62,693 nt of DNA from Candidatus Eiseniibacteriota bacterium. Its GTDB lineage: Bacteria; Eisenbacteria; RBG-16-71-46; SZUA-252. Positions 5,429 through 38,807 of the stretch are shown here, piece by piece. The notes beneath the pieces were generated by a model, which saw nothing but the letters and a program-made list of their open reading frames with translations, did no database searches and was not told the DNA's origin. How positions within the stretch are numbered: the first letter of the stretch is position 1; the number at the start of each line of letters is the position of its first letter. The stretch covers positions 1 through 62,693 of the forward strand of contig DASXQO010000230.1 of assembly GCA_036507115.1 (NCBI GenBank), read 5' to 3'. The position numbers and the translations under genes are program-made.

Positions 5429-7108
5429 TTAGGGCTTGGAGAAGAGGGTGAGTCCCGCCGGGCTGGACGGGCCGCGCTTGCCGCGCCCCCGGGATTCGGC
5501 CGCCTTGGCCTCGCCATCCAGCCGTAGGGCCCGGCACACCCGGCCGAGCATGAACTCGGCATCGGAACCCGAGTCGCGGCAACGCACCGCGCGCCTCAAC
5601 AGATCTCTCGCTAACTCCAATTGCCCCATGCTGTAGCGGATACTTCCAAGCAGCGCCAGAGCCCGCCCATTCACGGGATCGAGTTCCACCGCACGATCGA
5701 GCCTCTGGAGCGCCCGATCCACCGCTCCCTGATTAAGATCTGATGCTGCGAGAAAGTAAAGGCACTCGGAATTCTCCCGGCCCAGGCTATTCAGTTTCTG
5801 GAAGGCCCATTCCGCCACCAGGCTGTCGCCGATCGAGGCCGCGGTCTGGCCCAATTCCGCGTAGAGCATGGGATTGTCGGGTCCCCGCAAGGCCCCCTCC
5901 CGCATGAGCGAGACGGCCTCCTCCGGATGCCGGAGGAGAATGTAGCAGAGAGCGCCCGCCAGCACCCGGCGGGGATTGTTCAGCAACCCGTCCCGGATCT
6001 GCTCCAGCGTCCGGACGCCGGTTCGCCTGTCGCCGACCTTGATCTCCAGATAGGCGACCATGAGCGACTCTTCCTGCGCCAGAGCGCGGAGTTTCAGGAG
6101 CTTGTGGTAGCAGCGGAGCGCCGGCTTGTGATACGCGAGCGCCACCAGCGCCCGGGCCTTGATGGGCAGCGCGGCCCGTTGGTCCCCAAGCGGTTTCACC
6201 GCTTCAAGTGCCGCTCGATAGTCGCCGTCGCGCAGGAGCGCGCGGCCAGCTTCGACGCGGACGTCGATCGGGTCGAAACCGCGCTGCGCCATCCGGCCCA
6301 GGAGAGCCTTCGCACCCTTCCGGTCCCCCTCGCGGAACAGGTAGGAGAGATACGCGGCCACCTGCTCGGGGACCGCGTCCGAGGCTTCGGCGCGACGGCG
6401 AAGGAGCCGCTCCTCGAGCGCCGTGTCACCCAGCCGCCGGGCCAGCTCCACACCCAGTCCCAAGGTCCGGGGGTCGTCCGGGTTGATTTCGAGGGCGAGC
6501 TGGAGCGCGTCCCCGGCCTCGTCCAACCGGCCGTCCTCGAGCGCCATGCCCAATACGCCGGACGCCACCCATCCGAAATCGGGCATGAGCTCGTCCGTGC
6601 GCCTGAGATCGGCCAGCGCCGCCTCGTACTTCTTGTCCAGTTCGTGCGCGAGTGCGCGGAGGGCGTAGAGCTCCGGGCGCGCGCCCATACGCCGGAGCGG
6701 CGGAGTGAGCGCCTTCACGGCGACCGAGGCTTCCCCCGCGCGGAGCCGCATCCGTCCCACGAGCATCGCCGCGTCGGCATTGAGGCTGTCGCACGCGAGC
6801 GAGCGGTCTCCCCATTCGAGCGCCCGCACGTCGTCGCCGGAGGACTCGAGGATCTGGGCGAACCGCGAAGCGGCGTAGCTCGATCCGGGGTCTTCCGTCG
6901 AGAGCGCCTCGGCCCACACGGCGGCTCCTTCCAGATTGCCGCTCTCCTGCTCGAGGGTCGAGCGCACGAGGAATTCGATGGTCGATGGAACGATGCGGGA
7001 GGACAGGGGCTCTGCGGGGGAGGATCCGGCGAACGCCGCGACGAGAATCAAGGGCAGCATTCCCCTACCCATCCATGAGGCCAGGGAAGATTTTGGGTCT
7101 CTGTTCAC
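5429..7108 (-). CDS. Secreted TPR-repeat protein
   Basis: Signal-peptide-like MGRGMLPLILVAAFAGSSPAEP followed by many TPR-like repeats. The start is uncertain: GTG 7108, or an ATG 12 or 16 codons downstream. Confidence 0.7.
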   Translation of the reverse strand: MNRDPKSSLASWMGRGMLPLILVAAFAGSSPAEPLSSRIVPSTIEFLVRSTLEQESGNLEGAAVWAEALSTEDPGSSYAASRFAQILESSGDDVRALEWGDRSLACDSLNADAAMLVGRMRLRAGEASVAVKALTPPLRRMGARPELYALRALAHELDKKYEAALADLRRTDELMPDFGWVASGVLGMALEDGRLDEAGDALQLALEINPDDPRTLGLGVELARRLGDTALEERLLRRRAEASDAVPEQVAAYLSYLFREGDRKGAKALLGRMAQRGFDPIDVRVEAGRALLRDGDYRAALEAVKPLGDQRAALPIKARALVALAYHKPALRCYHKLLKLRALAQEESLMVAYLEIKVGDRRTGVRTLEQIRDGLLNNPRRVLAGALCYILLRHPEEAVSLMREGALRGPDNPMLYAELGQTAASIGDSLVAEWAFQKLNSLGRENSECLYFLAASDLNQGAVDRALQRLDRAVELDPVNGRALALLGSIRYSMGQLELARDLLRRAVRCRDSGSDAEFMLGRVCRALRLDGEAKAAESRGRGKRGPSSPAGLTLFSKP

Positions 7109-26055: not shown

Positions 26056-27207
26056 TCAGGCGGGCGCGGGGGGATCCCCGCCCCGCACGCGGTAGCGCTC
26101 CGAAAATTCCCGCGCGTACTGGTGCAGGAGGCCGCGCTCGATCGCGCGGCGGGCGGCTTCCATCAGTGTCTGGTAAAACGTCACGTTGTGCAAGGTCAGC
26201 ATTCGGTGCGCGAGGATCTCTCCCGCGAGATGCAGGTGTCGAAGGTAGGCGCGGGTCAGGAGCGCGCACGCCTCGCACCGGCACGCGGCGTCGAGCGGCC
26301 GATCCGAGCGCGCGTGCTCCGCGTTCCGGATGTTCAGCGGACCTTCGCCGGTGAATGCCATCCCGTTTCGGGCGTTCCGCGTCGGAAGCACGCAATCGAA
26401 GAGATCGACACCGCACGCGATCCCGTTCAGGAGGTCGATCGGCGTGCCCATCCCCATGAGATAGCGCGGCAGGCCGGGCGGAAGCGCTTCGGTCGCGGCG
26501 CGCGCCAGCGCCCAGGTCTCGCGCTTCGTCTCGCCGACCGAGAGCCCGCCGATCGCGAAGCCGTCGCATGGAAACGCGGCGGTCCGCTCCGCCATTTCCC
26601 GGCGTAAGGCGGGATCCCCTCCCCCCTGGACGATCGCGAAGAGGAGCTGGCTCTTGCCGCCGGGAAGCGCCAAGGTCCGGGCGTGCCGGAGGGAACGTTC
26701 CGTCCAGCGGAGCGTGCGGTCCCCCGCCTCGCGCTGCTCCGCCAGACTGAGCGGCAGCGGAACCGCGTGGTCGAGCGTGACCGCGATATCGGAGCCCAGA
26801 TCCGCCTGCACCTCCATCGAACGCTCGGGGGGCAGAAATTCCAGGGCCCCGTCCAGGTGGGAGCGGAACTCGACGCCCTCCTCGCTCACCTTCACCCGCT
26901 CCTTGAGGCTGAGCACCTGATACCCGCCGCTGTCCGTGAGGATCGGTCCCTCCCAGGCCATGAAGCGATGGAGGCCGCCCAGGTTCCGGATCAGCCCGGA
27001 GCCCGGGCGGAGCATCAAATGGTAGGTATTCGCGAGGAGGATCCGGGTGCCCGTGGCCTTCAGATCGGCAGGCGTGAGTCCTTTGACGGTCCCCTGGGTG
27101 CCCACCGGCATGAACGCGGGGGTGGGAATGTCGCCGTGAGGCGTGGCGAGCGTGCCGGCGCGCGGTCCCGCCGGGTCACGTCCCGATGTGATGGAGAAGG
27201 CGCTCAG
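26056..27207 (-). CDS. tgt: Queuine tRNA-ribosyltransferase
   Basis: TPAFMPVGTQGTVKG, LANTYHL, GLSVGE, and a CxCxxC...H zinc site (CRCEAC). The only in-frame start-like codon at the expected distance from FMPVGT is CTG 27207, 6 nt after the upstream stop. The start is uncertain. Confidence 0.85.
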   Translation of the reverse strand: MSAFSITSGRDPAGPRAGTLATPHGDIPTPAFMPVGTQGTVKGLTPADLKATGTRILLANTYHLMLRPGSGLIRNLGGLHRFMAWEGPILTDSGGYQVLSLKERVKVSEEGVEFRSHLDGALEFLPPERSMEVQADLGSDIAVTLDHAVPLPLSLAEQREAGDRTLRWTERSLRHARTLALPGGKSQLLFAIVQGGGDPALRREMAERTAAFPCDGFAIGGLSVGETKRETWALARAATEALPPGLPRYLMGMGTPIDLLNGIACGVDLFDCVLPTRNARNGMAFTGEGPLNIRNAEHARSDRPLDAACRCEACALLTRAYLRHLHLAGEILAHRMLTLHNVTFYQTLMEAARRAIERGLLHQYAREFSERYRVRGGDPPAPA

Positions 27208-27212
27208 GGGTG

Positions 27213-28457
27213 CTAACGCTTGAGCGCGGCGTCGAGGTTCCGGCGCGTCAACGGAAGACTCAGGCTGGGGAGTTCCGCGCGCGCGGACCCCGAGTCCGGC
27301 GCGGCCGGCTCCCCGGGCGAGAGAAAGACCACCACCCCCGGTTTCACGATGCCGAGCCCCTCGAGCCGTTCCAGGACCCAAGGACCGCCCCGAGGCGGGA
27401 GCGTCCGCTCGAGGAGAACCAGGGACGGGGCCCTCCCCGCGGCGACGCGCTCGAGCGCCTGGATCCCGTGCGGTGCCTCCTCGACGACAAGCCCGTGCTG
27501 CTCGAGGAGAATCCGGACCCACGCGCGGACGAGCGGCGAGCGGTGCGCGATCAGCGCCAGCTCGGGATCGGGGGGTTCCTGCGCCCCCATCGCCCGCGCG
27601 GATTCCGACTCCGGATCGGGCAGCTCGTACGCGTATCGGTCCCCCCAGGGGATCGGCACCAAGCCCAGGTCGGAGGCGCCGATCGAGTCCCCTTTGCCCA
27701 GGAGCAGCACCCCGCCGGGCACCAGCGCCCGCGAGAGGTTCTCGAGCGCCGTCCGCCGCCCGTCCGGGGTGAGCGAGGACAGAAACCCGCGCGCGAGGAC
27801 GAGGTCGAAGGTCCCGAGGCAGAGGAGCGCGTCGGATTCGCAGAGATTGACCCGCGCGAATCGGACGTAGGGCCTGAGCGCGCTCGCGACGATTTCGCCG
27901 TCCCGCTCCGTGAAGTAGCGTTCGCGAAGCTCCGTGGGGATCGGCGCCGCGCGCGAGGCGGGGTAGGAGGCGCGGCGGGCGATCGCGACGGCGCGCGCGC
28001 TCAGATCGACGCCGATCACTTCGAATTCGAACGCGGCCGACCGGGAACCCGCCTCAGCGAGCGCGATCGCGAGCGAATAGGCTTCCTCGCCGGTGCCGCA
28101 CCCCGCGCTCAAACACCGGAAGCGGCCCGGGTCGCCGCGCGCGCGCGGTCTGCCGGGATCGGACGCCATCTCGAAGAGGGGCGAGAAATCCCCCGGCTCG
28201 CCGAAGACGCGAGACTCGTTCGCCGTGAGGGTCTCCACGAGGTCGTCCCAGGCCCGGCTGCCCGCGCCGTAGAGGAGATATTCCGCGTAGGCTTCCAGGC
28301 TGTCGAACGCGCGGTCCTGGATCCGATTGCGAAGCCGCTGCGCCACGCCCTCCGGAGCGCACTCCTTGAGCGAGAGCCCCCGCGTCTCGGCGAGACGCTT
28401 CTCCAGCGCCGCGACCGGGCGGCGCGTGAGGTCTTTGCCCCCCCGTTCAGCCGCCAT
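27213..28457 (-). CDS. CheR-type SAM-dependent methyltransferase fused to a degenerate (pseudo) receiver domain
   Basis: CheR_N-like region plus FRCLSAGCGTGEEAYSLAIAL SAM motif. The C-terminal ~115 aa have the CheY fold pattern, but AHRS replaces the acidic pair, E350 (LVLLERTLPP) sits at the phospho-Asp position, and LP replaces KP. Confidence 0.75.
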   Translation of the reverse strand: MAAERGGKDLTRRPVAALEKRLAETRGLSLKECAPEGVAQRLRNRIQDRAFDSLEAYAEYLLYGAGSRAWDDLVETLTANESRVFGEPGDFSPLFEMASDPGRPRARGDPGRFRCLSAGCGTGEEAYSLAIALAEAGSRSAAFEFEVIGVDLSARAVAIARRASYPASRAAPIPTELRERYFTERDGEIVASALRPYVRFARVNLCESDALLCLGTFDLVLARGFLSSLTPDGRRTALENLSRALVPGGVLLLGKGDSIGASDLGLVPIPWGDRYAYELPDPESESARAMGAQEPPDPELALIAHRSPLVRAWVRILLEQHGLVVEEAPHGIQALERVAAGRAPSLVLLERTLPPRGGPWVLERLEGLGIVKPGVVVFLSPGEPAAPDSGSARAELPSLSLPLTRRNLDAALKR

Positions 28458-29868
28458 GCGCCCCCGCCGATTCGATCCGGTATTCCTTGAGCTTCGTCCG
28501 GAGCGTCTGCCTCGAGATGCCGAGCCACTCCGCCGCCTTCGTCTTGTTTCCTCCCGCCTGCCCGAGCGCCATCTCGATCGCGATCCGCTCCGCCTGCGCG
28601 AGCGTCGTGATCCCCCCTTCCCCCTTGAGACGCGTCTCGAGCACCGCGGCGCTCCCGCCCGAGGCGCCGACGATCTCGAGGGGAAGATGCTCGGGGAGGA
28701 TCCACTCGTCGCTCTCGAGGAGGATCGCGCGCTCGATCACGTTCCGGAGCTCGCGCACGTTCCCGGGCCAGCGGTAGGCGAGGAGAAGCTCCAGCGCGCG
28801 GTCGGTGGGCCCCTTCACGTTTCTTCCGAGCTCCCGGTTCCAGTGGCCGACGAAGTGGTCGATCAGGGGCGGGATGTCCTCGGGGCGCTCGCGGAGCGGC
28901 GGGACGAGGATGCGGATCACGTCCAGCCGGAAGAAGAGGTCCTCCCGGAATTTCTCCTGCTGCACGAGTGTTTTCAGATCCCGGTTGGTCGCCGCGATGA
29001 TCCGGGTCTCGACCAGGATGTCGCTCACGCCCCCGAGTCTGCGAAACCGCTTCATGTCGAGGGCGCGGAGGAGCTTCGACTGGAGCGCCAGGCTCATCTC
29101 GCCGATCTCGTCGAGGAAGAGGGTGCCTCCGTTCGCGATCTCCATCAGCCCCTTCTTCGTCCGCTTCGCGTCGGTGTGGCTCCCTCGCTCGTAACCGAAA
29201 AGCTCGCTCTCGAGAAGGGTGTCGGGGATCGCGCTGCAGTTCACCTCCACGAAGGGGCCGTCGTGGCCGGGCCCCAGGTCGTGGATCTCGCGCGCGAGGA
29301 GCTCCTTGCCCACCCCGGTCTCTCCCTGGATCAGCACGGTGGAGCTGCCGGTGGTCGCGATTTTCCGGATCGTCTCGAAGATCTTCGCGAGCTTCGAGCT
29401 TCCGCCCACGATGAGGGTCGAGCCCGCGCGGCGGCGCTCGACGGCGCGGAGCCGCGTCACCTCCTCGGACAGCCGCGTCTGGGAGAGCGCGTTCTTGATC
29501 ACGAGCTTCATGTGGTCCAGCTCGAAGGGCTTTCCGATGTAGTCGAAACAGCCGGCCTTGGTCGCCTCCACCGCGGACTCGAACTTCCCGAACGCGGTCA
29601 TGATCACGACCTGCATCATGGGAAACCGCGACCGGATTTCTTTCAGGAGATCGAGTCCGCTTCCGTCGGGAAGCTTCTGGTCGAGCAGGGCGAGGTGGTA
29701 TTCCTCTCGATTCAGGATCTCCAGCGCCGACGCTTGATCTCCGGCCGTCTCCACCCGATACCCCTCCTCCGAGAGCCCCTCCTTGAGCGCGTACCGGAGC
29801 GTCTTCTCGTCGTCCACGACCAGAATGCCGAAGGTCTGCCTAGCGAGGATTACCACGCCTGTCTCCAT
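28447..29868 (-). CDS. NtrC-family response regulator (REC-AAA+-HTH) with a degenerate GAFTGA loop
   Basis: Canonical REC (VVDDE, LLDQKLPDGSG, IMTAF, GKPF). Walker A GETGVGKE, Walker B LFLDEIGE, WPGNVRELRN, and a Fis-type HTH. ELFGYERGSHTDA stands where ELFGHEKGAFTGA is expected. An alternative start is GTG 29856. Confidence 0.9.
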   Translation of the reverse strand: METGVVILARQTFGILVVDDEKTLRYALKEGLSEEGYRVETAGDQASALEILNREEYHLALLDQKLPDGSGLDLLKEIRSRFPMMQVVIMTAFGKFESAVEATKAGCFDYIGKPFELDHMKLVIKNALSQTRLSEEVTRLRAVERRRAGSTLIVGGSSKLAKIFETIRKIATTGSSTVLIQGETGVGKELLAREIHDLGPGHDGPFVEVNCSAIPDTLLESELFGYERGSHTDAKRTKKGLMEIANGGTLFLDEIGEMSLALQSKLLRALDMKRFRRLGGVSDILVETRIIAATNRDLKTLVQQEKFREDLFFRLDVIRILVPPLRERPEDIPPLIDHFVGHWNRELGRNVKGPTDRALELLLAYRWPGNVRELRNVIERAILLESDEWILPEHLPLEIVGASGGSAAVLETRLKGEGGITTLAQAERIAIEMALGQAGGNKTKAAEWLGISRQTLRTKLKEYRIESAGAHGG

Positions 29869-31036
29869 GTCGTTTCTCCACGGGTAGGTCGATGAGCACG
29901 CTCGTCCCCTGCCCGACCACGCTTTCGATCGAGATGGAGCCTCCGTGCTCGCGGATGATGGTCTGGCAGATACTGAGACCGAGCCCGGTCCCCTGGGTGC
30001 GCGTCGTGTAGAACGGATCGAAGACGCGCGCCAGCACGGCCGCGGGAATCCCGGGACCGTTGTCCTGGATGCGCACCTCGACGAGATCGAGGAGCGGCGC
30101 CGGGCGCCGCGCGCCGAGCCGGTCCCCCGAGCGCCGCCCGAGCCGCGAGCGCTCCGCGAGGCGCTTGCGGACCGGGCCGACGCCGATCGTGAGCTCTCCT
30201 CCCTGGTCCAGCGCCTGGAGCGCGTTCATGAGCACGTTGAGAATGACCTGTAATGTCTGATCCAGGTCGACGTAGACGTCGGGGATCGAATCGGCGCGAT
30301 CCACCCGGATGAGCACGTTCTGCCGCACCGCGACTTCGTGGACGAGCATGAGCGCCTTCTCCAGGGCAGGCAGGATCGATTGGCGCTGGAGTTTCGGCGT
30401 GGCGGGACGGGCGAACTGGAGCAGCCCGGTCACGATGCGGTCGAGGCGCGAGACTTCCTCGAGGATGAGATCGATGAACTGCGCCCGCGGATCCCCCACT
30501 TCCAGCCTGCGCTTCATGACCTGGGCCGAGGTGCCGATTCCCGCCAGGGGGTTGCGGATCTCGTGGGCGACTCCCGCCGCCAGCGCGCCGAGCGAGGCGA
30601 GCCGGTCGCGGCGCCGCCACTGCTCCTCCTGCGCCTTCTGCTCCCGCAAATCCTGAAACAGGGCGATCGTCCCCTGAAGCGAACCGTCGAGCGATTCGAG
30701 CGGAAGGAGCCTCAGCCCGACCGGAAGCACGTCTCCGGACCGGGTTACGACCTCCACCTCGCGCGCCTCCTCCGGCGCGGCACAGGCGCCGGGCGGCACG
30801 TGCGACTCCCCACGCGGCGCGCGCAGGATCCTCGCGACGTCCTCCCCTTCGACTTCCTCCGCGCTGTAGCCGAGAAGCACAGATGCCGCCGGGTTGATGG
30901 CCAGGATGGACGCGTCCCGGCCGATCGCGATCACCCCGAACGGCGCGTGCCGGAGAAAGCTCCACGCCGCGTCTACCGCGTGCTGGCCCGGCGGCGAAGG
31001 CTCGCCGCCCGCGTGGAGAACGCTCCGCGTCCTCAC
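29840..31036 (-). CDS. Soluble PAS-domain sensor histidine kinase
   Basis: No TM segment. PAS (FGVIAIGRDASILAINPAASVLLGY). H-box AHEIRNPL, N-box NVLMNALQA, G1 DNGPGI, and G2 GTGLGL. The GTG start overlaps the HEAT gene stop (GTGA). Confidence 0.9.
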   Translation of the reverse strand: MRTRSVLHAGGEPSPPGQHAVDAAWSFLRHAPFGVIAIGRDASILAINPAASVLLGYSAEEVEGEDVARILRAPRGESHVPPGACAAPEEAREVEVVTRSGDVLPVGLRLLPLESLDGSLQGTIALFQDLREQKAQEEQWRRRDRLASLGALAAGVAHEIRNPLAGIGTSAQVMKRRLEVGDPRAQFIDLILEEVSRLDRIVTGLLQFARPATPKLQRQSILPALEKALMLVHEVAVRQNVLIRVDRADSIPDVYVDLDQTLQVILNVLMNALQALDQGGELTIGVGPVRKRLAERSRLGRRSGDRLGARRPAPLLDLVEVRIQDNGPGIPAAVLARVFDPFYTTRTQGTGLGLSICQTIIREHGGSISIESVVGQGTSVLIDLPVEKRHGDRRGNPR

Positions 31037-32838
31037 GTCTGCGCTGCCTCGATGCGCCGGACGGCGTCCGTCGCGAGGTCACGGAGCTCCGGATCCCCGC
31101 CGCGCGCCACGGCGCGCAGCCTCGGGAGCGCTTCCGGATCGCCGAGCGAGCCCAGCGACTCGATCGCCTGCGCCGCGACCGGGGGAGCGCCGGTCGAGAC
31201 GGCGTCGAGCAGCGCTCCCACGGCGTGGGAATCGTGGCGGCGCCCGAGGGCGCGGGCCGCGGCGCGCCCGACCGCGGCGCAAGGATCGCCGAGGAGCTGG
31301 CACAGCCAGGCGGCGCGCTCGACTCCGCTCGCCTGCTCGAGCGCCGCGGCGAAGGTCTGTCTCAACCCCGCGTCCGGGTCGCGCAAGAACGCCCGGAGCG
31401 GCTCGAGGCCGAGCGCGGAAGAGGCCTCAAGCCGCGCTCGGAGGGCGTGGGCTCGTACCCGGGGGTCCTCGTCCGCCAGGAGTACTACCGCGGTTTCGAG
31501 CCATACGCCGCGCTCGTTCAGGCTCATCGCGGCCGCGAGCCTCACGCCGGCGTCCGGGTCCGATACCGCCCCCTGAAACAGGTCGCCCGCACGGCGCGGG
31601 TCGCACACGCGGAGCGCCGCCGCGCGCGCCGGTCCGTCCTGGGCGCGCTCGAACAGCCGCTCGGCGTCGACTTCGTGCTCGCGGATCGCCCGGAGCGCCG
31701 TGAGCGCCGCCTGCCTCACGTCGGGATAGGGATCGGAGAGGAGCATCGACTCTAGAATGGGTCCGGCGCTGGCCCAGCGCATGAGGCCCAGGCCCTCCGC
31801 CGCCTGCGCGCGCACGTGCCCGATCGCGTCCCCTGAAAGCAAGAGCAGCGCGTTCGCGGCCCCCCGGCCGCCCGATCGGCCGGCGAGCGCCGCGGCGCGC
31901 TCGCGAACGAGCGCGTCCGAGTGGCGGGTCAGGCCGAGACAGACGTTCAGGGCTTCCTCCTCGCGTGCCGCGGCCACCCGGTCGAGCGCCAGGGCGGCCA
32001 CGCCCGGGATCCGGTCCGCCGCCTCCGCGATCGAGCGGAGCGTATCCCCTTCCGCCCCGGCCGCGACCATCCCGAACGCCTCGCGCGCCCGCTCGCGGAC
32101 GACGCGGTCCGGCGAGTCGAGGAGCATGAGAAGAAGCGCCGGGCCTTCGGGCGGCCGGAGCCAGGCGATGAGCGCGATGCCGGTTCGTTGGGCGCCGCGA
32201 TCCCCGGACGCCACGAGGCCCCGGAGCCTCCGCTCGAGGAGGCCGGCCGGCAGACTCCCCGCCGGGACGGCCTGCGGCGCGCGCTCGTGGAGGTGGGCCA
32301 GCGCCGCGAGCGCCTCCGCTTCGACGGCGGGCACGCCGCACTGGAGGAACCTCACGAGCTCGGGAGTGGATCGCGCCGTGCCGTTCGCGCCCAGGGCGCG
32401 GATCACCGCGACCCGGACCGCCGGCTCCTCCTCCCCGAGCCGGTCCATCAAGAGCTCTTCCACGCCCGGATCCTCGAGCTTCGCCAGCGCGAGCGCGAGA
32501 GGTCCGGAGAGCTCGGGCCTCGACGCGAGGCATTCCGAGAGGGCGTCCGAAGCGCGGGGAATCCGAAGAGAAGCGAGCGCCTCCGCCGCGGAAACCACGA
32601 CGTCGGGGGAGGGGTCTTCGAGAGCGGACGCGAGGAGATCGGGTGGGATGGGGTCCGGACGGCCCTGGATCAGGCTGACGGCGAGCGACCGGGTTTCGGG
32701 GTCTGGATCGAAAACGCGATCCTCGAGCGCCCGGCTCAGCTCCGCGCCGAAATCCTCGAGCCTCTGCGCCTCACGGGCTTTGGCGCCCGGATCGGCGCGC
32801 TGAAGCAATTCCGCCGCTTCCTTGCGGGCTTTGGGCAT
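31033..32838 (-). CDS. HEAT/PBS-lyase-type repeat protein (about 12 repeats)
   Basis: Repeated D-P-x-x-x-V-R-x-x-A-x-x-A-L-G units, for example EDPSPDVVVSAAEALASL, SDPYPDVRQAALTALRAI, SDPDAGVRLAAAMSLN and DEDPRVRAHALRARL. Confidence 0.8.
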   Translation of the reverse strand: MPKARKEAAELLQRADPGAKAREAQRLEDFGAELSRALEDRVFDPDPETRSLAVSLIQGRPDPIPPDLLASALEDPSPDVVVSAAEALASLRIPRASDALSECLASRPELSGPLALALAKLEDPGVEELLMDRLGEEEPAVRVAVIRALGANGTARSTPELVRFLQCGVPAVEAEALAALAHLHERAPQAVPAGSLPAGLLERRLRGLVASGDRGAQRTGIALIAWLRPPEGPALLLMLLDSPDRVVRERAREAFGMVAAGAEGDTLRSIAEAADRIPGVAALALDRVAAAREEEALNVCLGLTRHSDALVRERAAALAGRSGGRGAANALLLLSGDAIGHVRAQAAEGLGLMRWASAGPILESMLLSDPYPDVRQAALTALRAIREHEVDAERLFERAQDGPARAAALRVCDPRRAGDLFQGAVSDPDAGVRLAAAMSLNERGVWLETAVVLLADEDPRVRAHALRARLEASSALGLEPLRAFLRDPDAGLRQTFAAALEQASGVERAAWLCQLLGDPCAAVGRAAARALGRRHDSHAVGALLDAVSTGAPPVAAQAIESLGSLGDPEALPRLRAVARGGDPELRDLATDAVRRIEAAQT

Positions 32839-32921
32839 CTTATCCGCGCTCGACTCCGCATCCAGGGGGGAAGGGAACTCAGGGCGCCGGTAATCTTCTT
32901 ACCAGCGACCTTTCGGCCCGG

Positions 32922-33107
32922 TCAAGCGGATTCCGGGCGTCCGCGCTCGGTCGGCGCGCCCTCCCGGGCCAGCCGGCGCAGGAGAAGGCGGCTCAGGACG
33001 CGGCGAACCTCGGGGCGGTCGTAGTATCGGTCCCGGATCCGGCGCCTGATTTCCGCCATCCGGGAGGAAGCCTCGATCTCCGGAGCTTCAATTGAGGTTG
33101 GCGGCAC
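32922..33107 (-). CDS. Small FlgM-like (anti-sigma-28 family) protein, tentative
   Basis: MAEIRRRIRDRYYDRPEVRRVLSRLLLRRL resembles the FlgM C-terminal pattern (I..aI..G.Y.vd...vA..ll). The start is GTG 33107 (20-nt overlap with the upstream gene) or ATG 33059. Confidence 0.35.
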   Translation of the reverse strand: MPPTSIEAPEIEASSRMAEIRRRIRDRYYDRPEVRRVLSRLLLRRLAREGAPTERGRPESA

Positions 33108-33423
33108 GGCTGCGGTCCCTCCGAATCGATGCGATCGCTTCGTTCCAACTGTCTTTCAAGTCGGCGAGCACCTCGGCGGCCTCGTCGAAGCGCCCCTCGG
33201 ACGATTCGGAAATGCAGAAGTCCAGAATCCCGAGGACGCGTCCGGCGACCTCCTCGCTCGCGAGCTCCAGACACTGCATGGACTCGCGGAGCGCCTCCTC
33301 GACCACCGGTTGACTTCCCGTCCGGCAGCCGCGCAGGGCGCAATCCAGTAATGCCAGCACTTCGTCGCAACGGCGGAGCCACCGGTCCAGCTCCGCGGGG
33401 TTCTCCTCATAGGTCTGGCTCAC
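33088..33423 (-). CDS. FliS-like helical chaperone, tentative
   Basis: 111 aa, acidic and helical. The C-terminus ...[30 protein letters not shown] closely follows my recollection of the FliS C-terminal helix (LYDYM....EV......AW..I). 4-nt overlap with the csrA stop. Confidence 0.45.
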
Positions 33424-38076: not shown

Positions 38077-38091
38077 AGCACGATACGTGCC
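38077..38091 (-). promoter_or_regulatory. Sigma54-type (-24/-12) promoter candidate upstream of the MglA-type GTPase gene
   Basis: The minus strand reads cGGCACGtatcgTGCTc against the consensus TGGCACG-N4-TTGCW, with correct GG-to-GC spacing. It lies about 95 nt upstream of ATG 37983. An AT-rich tract at 38127-38146 lies further upstream. Confidence 0.35.
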
Positions 38092-38262
38092 GCCGTGTCT
38101 CGGGAAAGAGAACGGTGGGTGGCGGCTTCATCTTTAGGAAAAATGCTGCTTCGTTCGGGTGGGTTCCCGGCGGAAGGGGCCCACCACGAGGGTGCGGGCG
38201 GAGAATCATGCAGTTCGCACGGCGACTGACAGATAGCGGTCCCGCGCCGCCGCGGAGGTCCG

Positions 38263-38676: not shown

Positions 38677-38807
38677 CGATACCCCCTACGAAGGGACCGC
38701 CTCATGGCATACGCGTTGCACTTGCAATCGTTCCAGAGCTGAGCCAGACGCCCGCGAGAGCGTGCGGTAACGTCTCGCACGTGTCCCGACATCCCGAGGA
38801 GGACGCC

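Follow-up and report, generated by a model that had tools for sequence, protein, structure and literature searches.

The window, a 62,693-bp contig (DASXQO010000230.1) from a Candidatus Eisenbacteria metagenome-assembled genome (MAG), carries four consecutive minus-strand genes that constitute a two-component system and two unusual accessories. The two inner genes encode a PAS histidine kinase and an NtrC-type bacterial enhancer-binding protein (bEBP), which acts as the response regulator. The outer genes encode a HEAT-repeat protein and a fusion protein, here called CheR-REC, in which a CheR-like methyltransferase fold is joined to a receiver-like domain. Related loci carry the kinase and the activator without HEAT or CheR-REC, the core being nearly unchanged, and the set is therefore best described as a two-component core accompanied by two dispensable accessories. 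As judged from sequence comparisons, the accessories are restricted to certain clades, and they probably depend on each other and work as a pair. The original prediction, made from the DNA letters alone, had proposed a single regulatory machine in which the HEAT protein is either the input or the methylation or interaction target of the CheR fusion. The observation on which it was built is confirmed, and its interpretation is partly supported.

Full-length CheR-REC sequences fall into approximately 49 clusters at 48–100% identity, beyond which the next matches are generic CheR proteins with no more than 40% identity over part of their length. HEAT orthologues form 42 clusters (approximately 566–615 amino acids, 43–100% identity), and the next match lies at 27%. 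The window copies of both proteins have 100%-identical counterparts among NCBI MAG proteins. The kinase belongs to a far larger family than these two. CheR-REC was found in 7 of 185,579 species-representative genomes, which are either Eisenbacteria or otherwise-labelled MAGs that share its sequence. Sixteen complete related loci were available for comparison, and in each of them the kinase and bEBP genes occupy the same syntenic position. HEAT and CheR-REC are both present in nine, both absent from seven, and never found singly; two truncated contigs with at least CheR-REC stand outside this tally. In the nine complete Eisenbacteria loci that have both genes, the four open reading frames (ORFs) form a co-directional unit chained by overlaps, with HEAT and CheR-REC identities that reach down to approximately 47–55%.

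The co-conservation that a single four-gene machine would lead one to expect is thus seen in these nine loci, but not in the other seven (L087–L093), where kinase and activator stand at the identical position without the accessories. The kinases of these seven loci are 68–85% identical to the window copy, and the gene order is Arf-like GTPase, TPR, trpA, PD40, csrA, FliS-like, 61-aa ORF, kinase, activator, tgt, yajC, def and fmt. Conservation of the neighbourhood within the both-present genomes was discarded as proof of function, since the whole region of approximately 20 kb is syntenic among them. The proposed functional tie between HEAT and the CheR fusion fares better, as the two are present or absent together in all complete loci and have undergone at least one independent double deletion.

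That deletion is evident from a neighbour-joining tree (2,161 concatenated residues, 300 bootstraps). Six both-absent loci form one clade (300/300 bootstraps), and the seventh, L092, groups with the both-present sub-clade of the window (again 300/300), while the more distant L004 and L005 keep both genes. L092 has therefore lost HEAT and CheR-REC independently. Its promoter and 5′ untranslated region (UTR) match those of its relatives to within a few bases of the HEAT ATG and then run straight into the kinase ATG. Beyond the activator stop codon, the match to its relatives resumes at the stop codon of CheR-REC. Such junctions indicate two separate, precise deletions that left the kinase and activator between them untouched.

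Relics at the corresponding positions favour deletion in the large both-absent clade as well. Loci L087 (9944–10003), L088 (9968–10003) and L090 (9968–10003) each carry an upstream ORF (uORF) of 11–19 codons (e.g. MMPQAGWEAESHSKLRGRA) ahead of the kinase. The 5′ UTR and the first nine or so codons of this uORF align with the 5′ end of HEAT, and its stop codon overlaps the kinase start by 4 nt. The uORF is longer in L089, and none was found in L091. This remnant of HEAT appears to maintain the translational coupling of the kinase. At the other end, Tgt of L088, L090 and L091 starts at an ATG that overlaps the bEBP stop codon by 11 nt (MAAEPSPF...), which is the start context of CheR-REC in the window (MAAER...).

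The core pair is nearly indifferent to this loss. Between the nine both-present loci and the five loci of clade B (L087–L091), there is one fixed difference in the kinase and there are two in the activator, all conservative, and essentially no residue of either protein was found to co-vary with the presence of the accessories. Where they are present, HEAT and CheR-REC have been kept under purifying selection over approximately 0.34 substitutions per site.

The fusion protein was modelled with AlphaFold2 at good confidence (predicted local distance difference test score, pLDDT, 83.6; predicted template-modelling score, pTM, 0.85). A Foldseek comparison with Salmonella CheR (1bc5 and 1af7) gave target-normalised template-modelling (TM) scores of 0.83 and 0.80 over 284 columns, with an E-value near 1e-17. 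The model thus predicts a full CheR fold, comprising the N-terminal helical domain, the Rossmann methyltransferase domain and the beta-subdomain. To read residue states, 47 family members were aligned with 10 canonical CheR proteins in Salmonella numbering. The residues of the S-adenosylmethionine (SAM) pocket, namely the motif-I Gly, E129, D154, N212 and R230, are retained in 47 of 47 members, and a basic helix of the N-terminal domain is also conserved, with R41, R45 and R49 invariant. In every one of the same 47 proteins, R98 is replaced by G, E or T, Y235 by S, A, T, V or G, and N231 by G or D. All three residues are present in all 10 canonical comparators, including the HEAT-CheR fusion P0097. 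R98 and Y235 are key catalytic residues of CheR, and cells carrying R98A do not swarm; a small subfamily of CheR fusions that lacks these residues has been read as possibly inactive (PMC3447774). The CheR-like domain therefore still looks competent to bind SAM or S-adenosylhomocysteine (SAH) while having lost both catalytic residues, and methylation of HEAT by the canonical CheR mechanism, as had been proposed, is unlikely.

The C-terminal domain of the fusion is predicted to be a pseudo-receiver that is not phosphorylatable in the usual way, in keeping with the original prediction. Its Response_reg score of 24 bits falls below the Pfam cut-off of 30.2. Relative to CheY, D12 is replaced by H (47/47), D13 by R (44/47), D57 by E (47/47) and K109 by L, V or I (47/47), with P110 kept. 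The modelled topology is β1-α1-β2-α2-β3-α3-β4, followed by a low-confidence loop (residues 387–394) in place of α4, and then β5-α5. The assignment rests on the missing acidic pocket, the Glu at the acceptor position, the loss of the conserved Lys and the absence of α4.

The HEAT protein is cytoplasmic, acidic (net charge -16) and rich in Glu and Ala. Its AlphaFold2 model (pLDDT 89.7) is a solenoid of 38 helices, and Foldseek retrieved generic solenoids only (alphaRep, the PP2A A subunit and karyopherin-beta), with TM scores of at most 0.49. Among the invariant residues of the family, none looks catalytic, and conservation is confined to the D-P-x-x-V-R repeat signature. On this model, HEAT would be a generic scaffold solenoid. 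In locus L007 (MAG OBJ_0618_7090110_248), the HEAT gene carries an in-frame TAG at codon 304 (6526–6528), where Gly is encoded elsewhere. The remainder of that gene is intact and conserved, as is its CheR-REC gene, and the TAG has arisen either by nonsense mutation, very recently, or through an error in the assembly.

By sequence, the kinase and bEBP are a canonical PAS-kinase/NtrC-type pair and form the conserved core of the module. The kinase is soluble, with an H-box of GVAHEIRNPLAGI; across nine orthologues its H, G1, F and G2 boxes do not vary and its N box hardly does, and identity to the window copy is 68–92% over all clades. An Arg-rich insertion of approximately 25 residues (RKRLAERSRLGRRSGDRLGARRPAP) lies between the N and G1 boxes of its ATP-binding domain (residues ~288–316) and is partly conserved among orthologues. 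The bEBP aligns end to end with Aquifex aeolicus NtrC1 (4l4u, E = 1.6e-102), and its receiver has the canonical DD, D, T and K residues in all orthologues, as expected of a phosphorylatable type. The best NCBIfam similarities are to AtoS for the kinase (267 bits) and to AtoC for the regulator (450 bits), and neither protein reaches any curated NCBIfam equivalog cut-off. The L1 loop of the bEBP reads GAFTDA in 11 of 17 orthologues, G[IV]FT[DG]A in 4 of 17, and GSHTDA in the window (residues ELFGYERGSHTDA) and in L009, where the same AGC CAC codons are used. In the GAFTGA loop of PspF, F85 and T86 contact region I of sigma-54 (PMC3467059). The Phe that makes this contact in PspF is His in the window bEBP, an oddity for which we offer no explanation.

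The positions of these genes and of their neighbours are collected in Table 1. The four ORFs, their coordinates, their overlaps of 4 nt (HEAT/kinase, GTGA), 29 nt (kinase/bEBP) and 11 nt (bEBP/CheR-REC), and the 83-nt gap (32839–32921) that separates HEAT from the upstream 61-aa ORF are exactly as first described. Pfam likewise bears out the HEAT, PAS kinase, bEBP and CheR assignments, the receiver of the fusion being below threshold. The 29-nt overlap is favoured over a 17-nt alternative because the bEBP N-terminus 'MET..' is conserved in 10 of 10 orthologues, and this overlap is kept in every complete locus examined. The window contains at least six other overlaps of 4–11 nt. Short overlaps are therefore frequent in this genome, and an overlap by itself is unremarkable; the notable point, judging from the alignments, is that the junctions are conserved among relatives.

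Table 1. Coordinates in the window of the four genes, their domains and the neighbouring features
Feature	Position	Strand	Basis
HEAT-repeat protein, 601 aa	31033-32838	(-)	Pfam HEAT_2, E = 4.9e-51
PAS histidine kinase, 398 aa, GTG start	29840-31036	(-)	Pfam PAS_4, HisKA, HATPase_c
NtrC-type activator (bEBP), 473 aa	28447-29868	(-)	Pfam Response_reg, Sigma54_activat (2.8e-64), AAA_lid_14, HTH_8
CheR fusion (CheR-REC), 414 aa	27213-28457	(-)	Pfam CheR, 1e-35; Response_reg sub-threshold
CheR-fold domain of the fusion, aa 1-285	27603-28457	(-)	Pfam CheR, AlphaFold2 model, Foldseek
Predicted pseudo-receiver domain of the fusion, aa ~295-414	27216-27575	(-)	Response_reg 24 bits, residue states, AlphaFold2 model
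csrA, 74 aa	33420-33644	(-)	NCBIfam CsrA, 2.5e-29, above cut-off
Divergent FliS-like protein, 111 aa, isoelectric point (pI) 4.4	33088-33423	(-)	Profile homology to FliS via relatives
Conserved basic 61-aa protein, pI 11.2, motif RRRIRDRYYDRPEVRR	32922-33107	(-)	Conservation in both clades
Promoter-like element	32896-32925	(-)	Comparative alignment
tgt (queuine tRNA-ribosyltransferase)	26056-27207	(-)	Pfam TGT in orthologous loci
Sigma-54-type -24/-12 element cGGCACgtatcGTGCt	38077-38092	(-)	~108 nt upstream of the Arf-like GTPase gene
Second sigma-54-type element TGGCATACGCGTTGCA, 1 mismatch to consensus	38705-38720	(+)	Consensus scan and positional conservation
Arf-like GTPase gene, 419 aa	36724-37983	(-)	N-terminal small-GTPase domain

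A Pfam scan of approximately 57 plausible ORFs across the whole window returned only housekeeping genes, including fab, rnc, dcw/mur/ftsQAZ, recG, tgt-yajC-def-fmt-rsmB, trpA and an extracytoplasmic function (ECF) sigma factor with its anti-sigma factor. As the original prediction stated, no methyl-accepting chemotaxis protein (MCP), CheA, CheW or CheB was found among these ORFs, and no flagellar structural gene. The same four chemotaxis components were also missing from approximately 6–10 kb around the module (less at contig ends) in 18 related loci. An Rfam scan of the interval from 26.0 to 39.5 kb identified no RNA family.

Comparative alignment revealed a short element with the likeness of a -35 box and an extended -10 box upstream of HEAT, or upstream of the relic uORF or kinase in loci that lack HEAT. 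In the window it consists of TTGACC (32925–32920), 15 nt and then TGGTAAGAA (32904–32896), and the TGA stop codon of the 61-aa ORF falls inside the -35-like box. The aligned form, CTTGACC-N15/16-CTGGTAA(A/G), is invariant in all eight of the both-present sequences that were aligned and in the clade-B loci, and it also occurs in L092, amid non-coding DNA that has diverged. We infer that it is the module's own sigma-70-like promoter. It was detected by alignment only; a generic promoter and terminator scan reported no sigma-70 site, and its terminator-like matches were below the shuffled expectation. The same scan found no terminator between CheR-REC and tgt, and transcription probably runs on into tgt. 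The HEAT ribosome-binding region, immediately ahead of the HEAT ATG, is flanked by two or three GGA motifs (tGGAtgcGGAgtcgagcgcGGAtaagATG; 32839–32870, minus strand) that are found again in the distant sub-clade; with csrA directly upstream, these could be CsrA binding sites.

The genes upstream had been described as a csrA-fliS-flgM trio directly next to the module. Of the three names, csrA stands. It is present in 14 of 16 complete loci; in L091 no csrA was called, yet BLAST detects a match of 98% identity, and the truncated loci L010 and L013 lack the gene. The second name also survives, by an indirect but significant route. The 111-aa ORF has no direct Pfam match of its own, but a phmmer search of 1.84 billion representative proteins gave 38 matches at E < 1e-3, and 29 of 33 aligned relatives match Pfam FliS (best 2.2e-16). 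A profile of the family additionally matches the FliS structure 1ory at 4e-10, and we take the ORF to encode a divergent FliS. This gene overlaps csrA by 4 nt and is found in every locus with a sequenced upstream flank. The 61-aa ORF, which overlaps the FliS-like gene by 20 nt, is not supported as FlgM: neither Pfam, searched with six orthologues, nor the PDB, searched with a profile, turned up FlgM or any other credible match at E ≤ 10. The succession of an acidic FliS-like protein and a very basic 61-aa protein directly after csrA suggests that the two may be a chaperone and its partner linked to CsrA control; no FliW or flagellin gene lies near them. The module does adjoin these genes, but the conserved promoter-like element makes it separable from csrA-fliS.

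Downstream, tgt follows CheR-REC immediately. No ATG, GTG or TTG lies near its conserved N-terminus (…SAFSITSGRD…); a conserved CTG at 27207–27205 is the candidate start, and gene callers in relatives begin the gene at the internal Met of FMPVGT. In clade B, an extra UbiA-family gene sits after trpA and before the PD40 gene; the both-present clade, L092 and L093 do not have it.

Two divergent sigma-54-type elements lie approximately 5 kb upstream of the module. The minus-strand element precedes the Arf-like GTPase/TPR/trpA operon and is found at -106 to -115 from the GTPase gene start in 8 of 10 loci; it occurs in the window, in the far both-present sub-clade (L004/L005) and in clade B, and is absent from L001 and L002. 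The plus-strand element faces a 65-aa ORF and an operon for a lipid-A acyltransferase, a GT4 protein and an MFS protein, and L001/L008, L087 and L089 carry it at the corresponding place. Matches to the sigma-54 consensus in the window are not above chance (8 versus 11 expected), and these two sites are credible because their positions are conserved across loci. They suggest that the lineage possesses sigma-54 promoters, and we regard them as candidate local targets of the bEBP, the link to this particular activator being presumptive. The GTPase itself has an N-terminal Arf/Ras-like domain and a long C-terminal extension; it is conserved in all related loci, and a TPR protein follows it.

Comparison with described systems places the core on familiar ground. 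With NtrB/NtrC, AtoS/AtoC and ZraS/ZraR it shares the kinase catalytic boxes, the canonical receiver, the AAA+ sigma-54 domain and the Fis-type helix-turn-helix (HTH); it differs in the GSHTDA loop and in that, in one clade, HEAT and CheR-REC bracket the pair in a translationally coupled chain. CheR-REC shares the three-part fold and the SAM-binding motif residues with Salmonella CheR (1AF7/1BC5) and Pseudomonas aeruginosa CheR1 (5XLY), from which it departs by the three replaced residues, the C-terminal pseudo-receiver and the lack of che neighbours. The association of a CheR-type module with helical repeats is also seen in CheR-TPR fusions such as WspC and FrzF (PMC3447774) and in P0097. The latter is a 671-aa protein (L006:10001-12016, JGI 3300041024) in which N-terminal HEAT repeats precede a canonical CheR with the catalytic R and Y, and it is surrounded by a complete che cluster (CheY, CheA, two CheW and CheB); HEAT-CheR association therefore recurs elsewhere. 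In P0097 and the fusions with C-terminal TPRs, the repeats are fused, the catalytic residues are kept and the genes reside in che clusters with CheA, CheW and CheB, whereas in the module HEAT has a gene of its own, three genes upstream, with no che genes nearby. We rejected a shared origin for the HEAT repeats of P0097 and the HEAT protein of the module, as the two have generic repeat similarity only (pairwise E = 3e-4).

The Che7 system of Myxococcus xanthus, which the original prediction had offered as a precedent for a chemosensory-HEAT link, possesses an MCP, CheA, CheW and a phosphorylatable CheY. In it, the HEAT-repeat protein Cpc7 binds the single-domain response regulator CheY7 (PMC11514114, citing Darnell et al. 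2014), and the precedent is confirmed to that extent. Both cases have a HEAT protein that is genetically linked to chemosensory-type parts and a receiver-type partner, a putative one here. Here, in contrast, a degenerate CheR is the sole chemosensory-type part, there is no che cluster, and the receiver-like domains are the pseudo-receiver and that of the activator. Two-component systems can also be modulated by proteins of a general class, the pseudo-receivers and connectors. With them, CheR-REC shares a receiver fold that lacks the acceptor pocket, a place in the same operon as the kinase and regulator, and dispensability for the core. We know of no connector pseudo-receiver that is joined to a CheR fold or has a HEAT scaffold as its partner, and no description of the four-gene architecture was found in the literature searched.

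We favour, with modest confidence, an arrangement in which HEAT and CheR-REC are a scaffold or adaptor pair that modulates the relay from kinase to activator. In such a system, the PAS kinase would phosphorylate the NtrC-type sigma-54 activator, both being cytoplasmic. This core pair is fixed in the Eisenbacteria lineage between csrA/fliS-like/61-aa and tgt-yajC-def-fmt, and the conserved promoter would drive the module as a chain of translationally coupled genes. HEAT and CheR-REC may associate, and their complex may dock on either the kinase or the activator receiver and tune phosphotransfer or activator assembly. The pair would then serve as a connector or adaptor derived from the machinery of chemosensory adaptation; it might report whether SAM or SAH is bound, and it would not be a receptor methyltransferase. 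The scaffold role is suggested by three precedents, namely the binding of CheY7 by Cpc7, the CheR-repeat fusions and the HEAT-CheR fusion of L006. The physical complex, its target surface, the signal and the output genes are all presumptive parts of this proposal.

Several observations weigh against such an arrangement. An invariant SAM pocket and a basic N-domain helix would also fit an active enzyme with non-canonical catalytic residues. The near constancy of the core requires that any docking surface pre-exist there, and the accessories may act elsewhere. For the co-loss of HEAT and CheR-REC there are two lineage events to draw on, of which the first is certain and the second deduced from relics. 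Finally, the operon continues into tgt, such that co-expression is not exclusive to the four genes. A bolder form of the proposal is that HEAT and CheR-REC represent an undescribed, chemoreceptor-free two-protein module descended from chemosensory adaptation parts. In it, a HEAT scaffold would hold a CheR fold that binds SAM/SAH without catalysis and a receiver that is not phosphorylatable, and together these would gate a sigma-54 two-component system as a new class of connector, gained once and shed as a unit. We put this forward tentatively, as a reading with considerably less to recommend it than the simple adaptor role.

What the system controls is a separate matter, and one answer is compatible with the adaptor mechanism. 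The kinase and activator could be the flagellar class regulator of the lineage, akin to FlgS/FlgR, FleS/FleR or FlrB/FlrC, as the original prediction implied. The recurrent presence of csrA and the FliS-like gene beside the system suggests a flagellar output, as do the FliS homology of the 111-aa ORF and the architecture of a soluble PAS kinase with an NtrC-type activator. However, csrA and the divergent FliS are the only flagellum-related neighbours, and genes for flagellar structure, sigma-28 and FlgM are all missing from the surrounding 10–30 kb in every locus. The curated models lend no support either, for the bEBP scores 288 bits against an NCBIfam FlgR cut-off of 750 (FlbD, 286 versus 750) and is matched better by the AtoC, NtrC and PEP-CTERM regulator models. 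The nearby sigma-54-type promoters precede the Arf-like GTPase and lipid-A acyltransferase operons rather than flagellar genes. Membership in these flagellar families is thus not borne out, and we consider a flagellar role unlikely.

The methylation hypothesis would make CheR-REC an active methyltransferase on HEAT (or on the kinase), and thus the centre of a receptor-free adaptation loop acting on a two-component system. Besides the complete fold, the fully retained SAM-contacting residues and the basic N-domain helix, it can draw on an acidic, Glu/Ala-rich potential substrate that is lost together with the enzyme and on the existence of HEAT-CheR fusions. Against it stand the replacement of Arg98, Tyr235 and Asn231 in every member, all of which the comparators keep, and the published treatment of R98/Y235 loss as a sign of inactive CheR proteins (PMC3447774). 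There is also no CheB-type demethylase in the window or in any related locus. The idea survives only if catalysis uses non-canonical residues, which we judge to be improbable.

HEAT and CheR-REC might instead be passengers without any functional link in a long housekeeping operon, their joint absence reflecting coincidence or shared ancestry. The general synteny of the region, from which co-conservation is inseparable, is in accord with this idea, as are the unchanged kinase and activator and the mapping of most of the absence pattern to one deep split. The two precise deletions in L092 are difficult to reconcile with it, however, as they spared the genes between them. Moreover, no single-gene state occurs among the 16 complete loci, whichever state a locus is in, its junctions stay in frame and keep translation coupled, and both proteins evolve under purifying selection. 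Unlinked passengers are therefore, in our estimation, quite improbable.

The CheR fusion is an orphan within the window, as originally described, but chemotaxis and motility genes have been reported in Eisenbacteria MAGs (bioRxiv 10.1101/2025.11.25.690425; PMC13271369). These reports, together with the commonness of CheR paralogues that carry extra domains (PMC3447774), would accommodate a fusion that acts in trans on chemoreceptors encoded elsewhere, its position being incidental or a matter of expression coupling only, but this is the least credible of the alternatives given that the catalytic residues are missing and that CheR-REC always resides at this locus and strictly follows the distribution of HEAT, not that of any che gene seen.

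Were the pair no more than an unrelated passenger, the locus would amount to an unexceptional NtrC-type system in a phylum about which little is known. If HEAT and CheR-REC do dock on the core as a scaffold or adaptor pair, parts of the chemotaxis adaptation apparatus would have been recycled as non-enzymatic regulators of a two-component system, and CheR-REC would be a further case of a pseudo-enzyme fused to a pseudo-receiver. The organisms are uncultured, but all five proteins concerned are soluble and amenable to work in vitro. Lineages with and without these accessories, built around a core that is nearly unchanged, constitute a ready-made comparative experiment.

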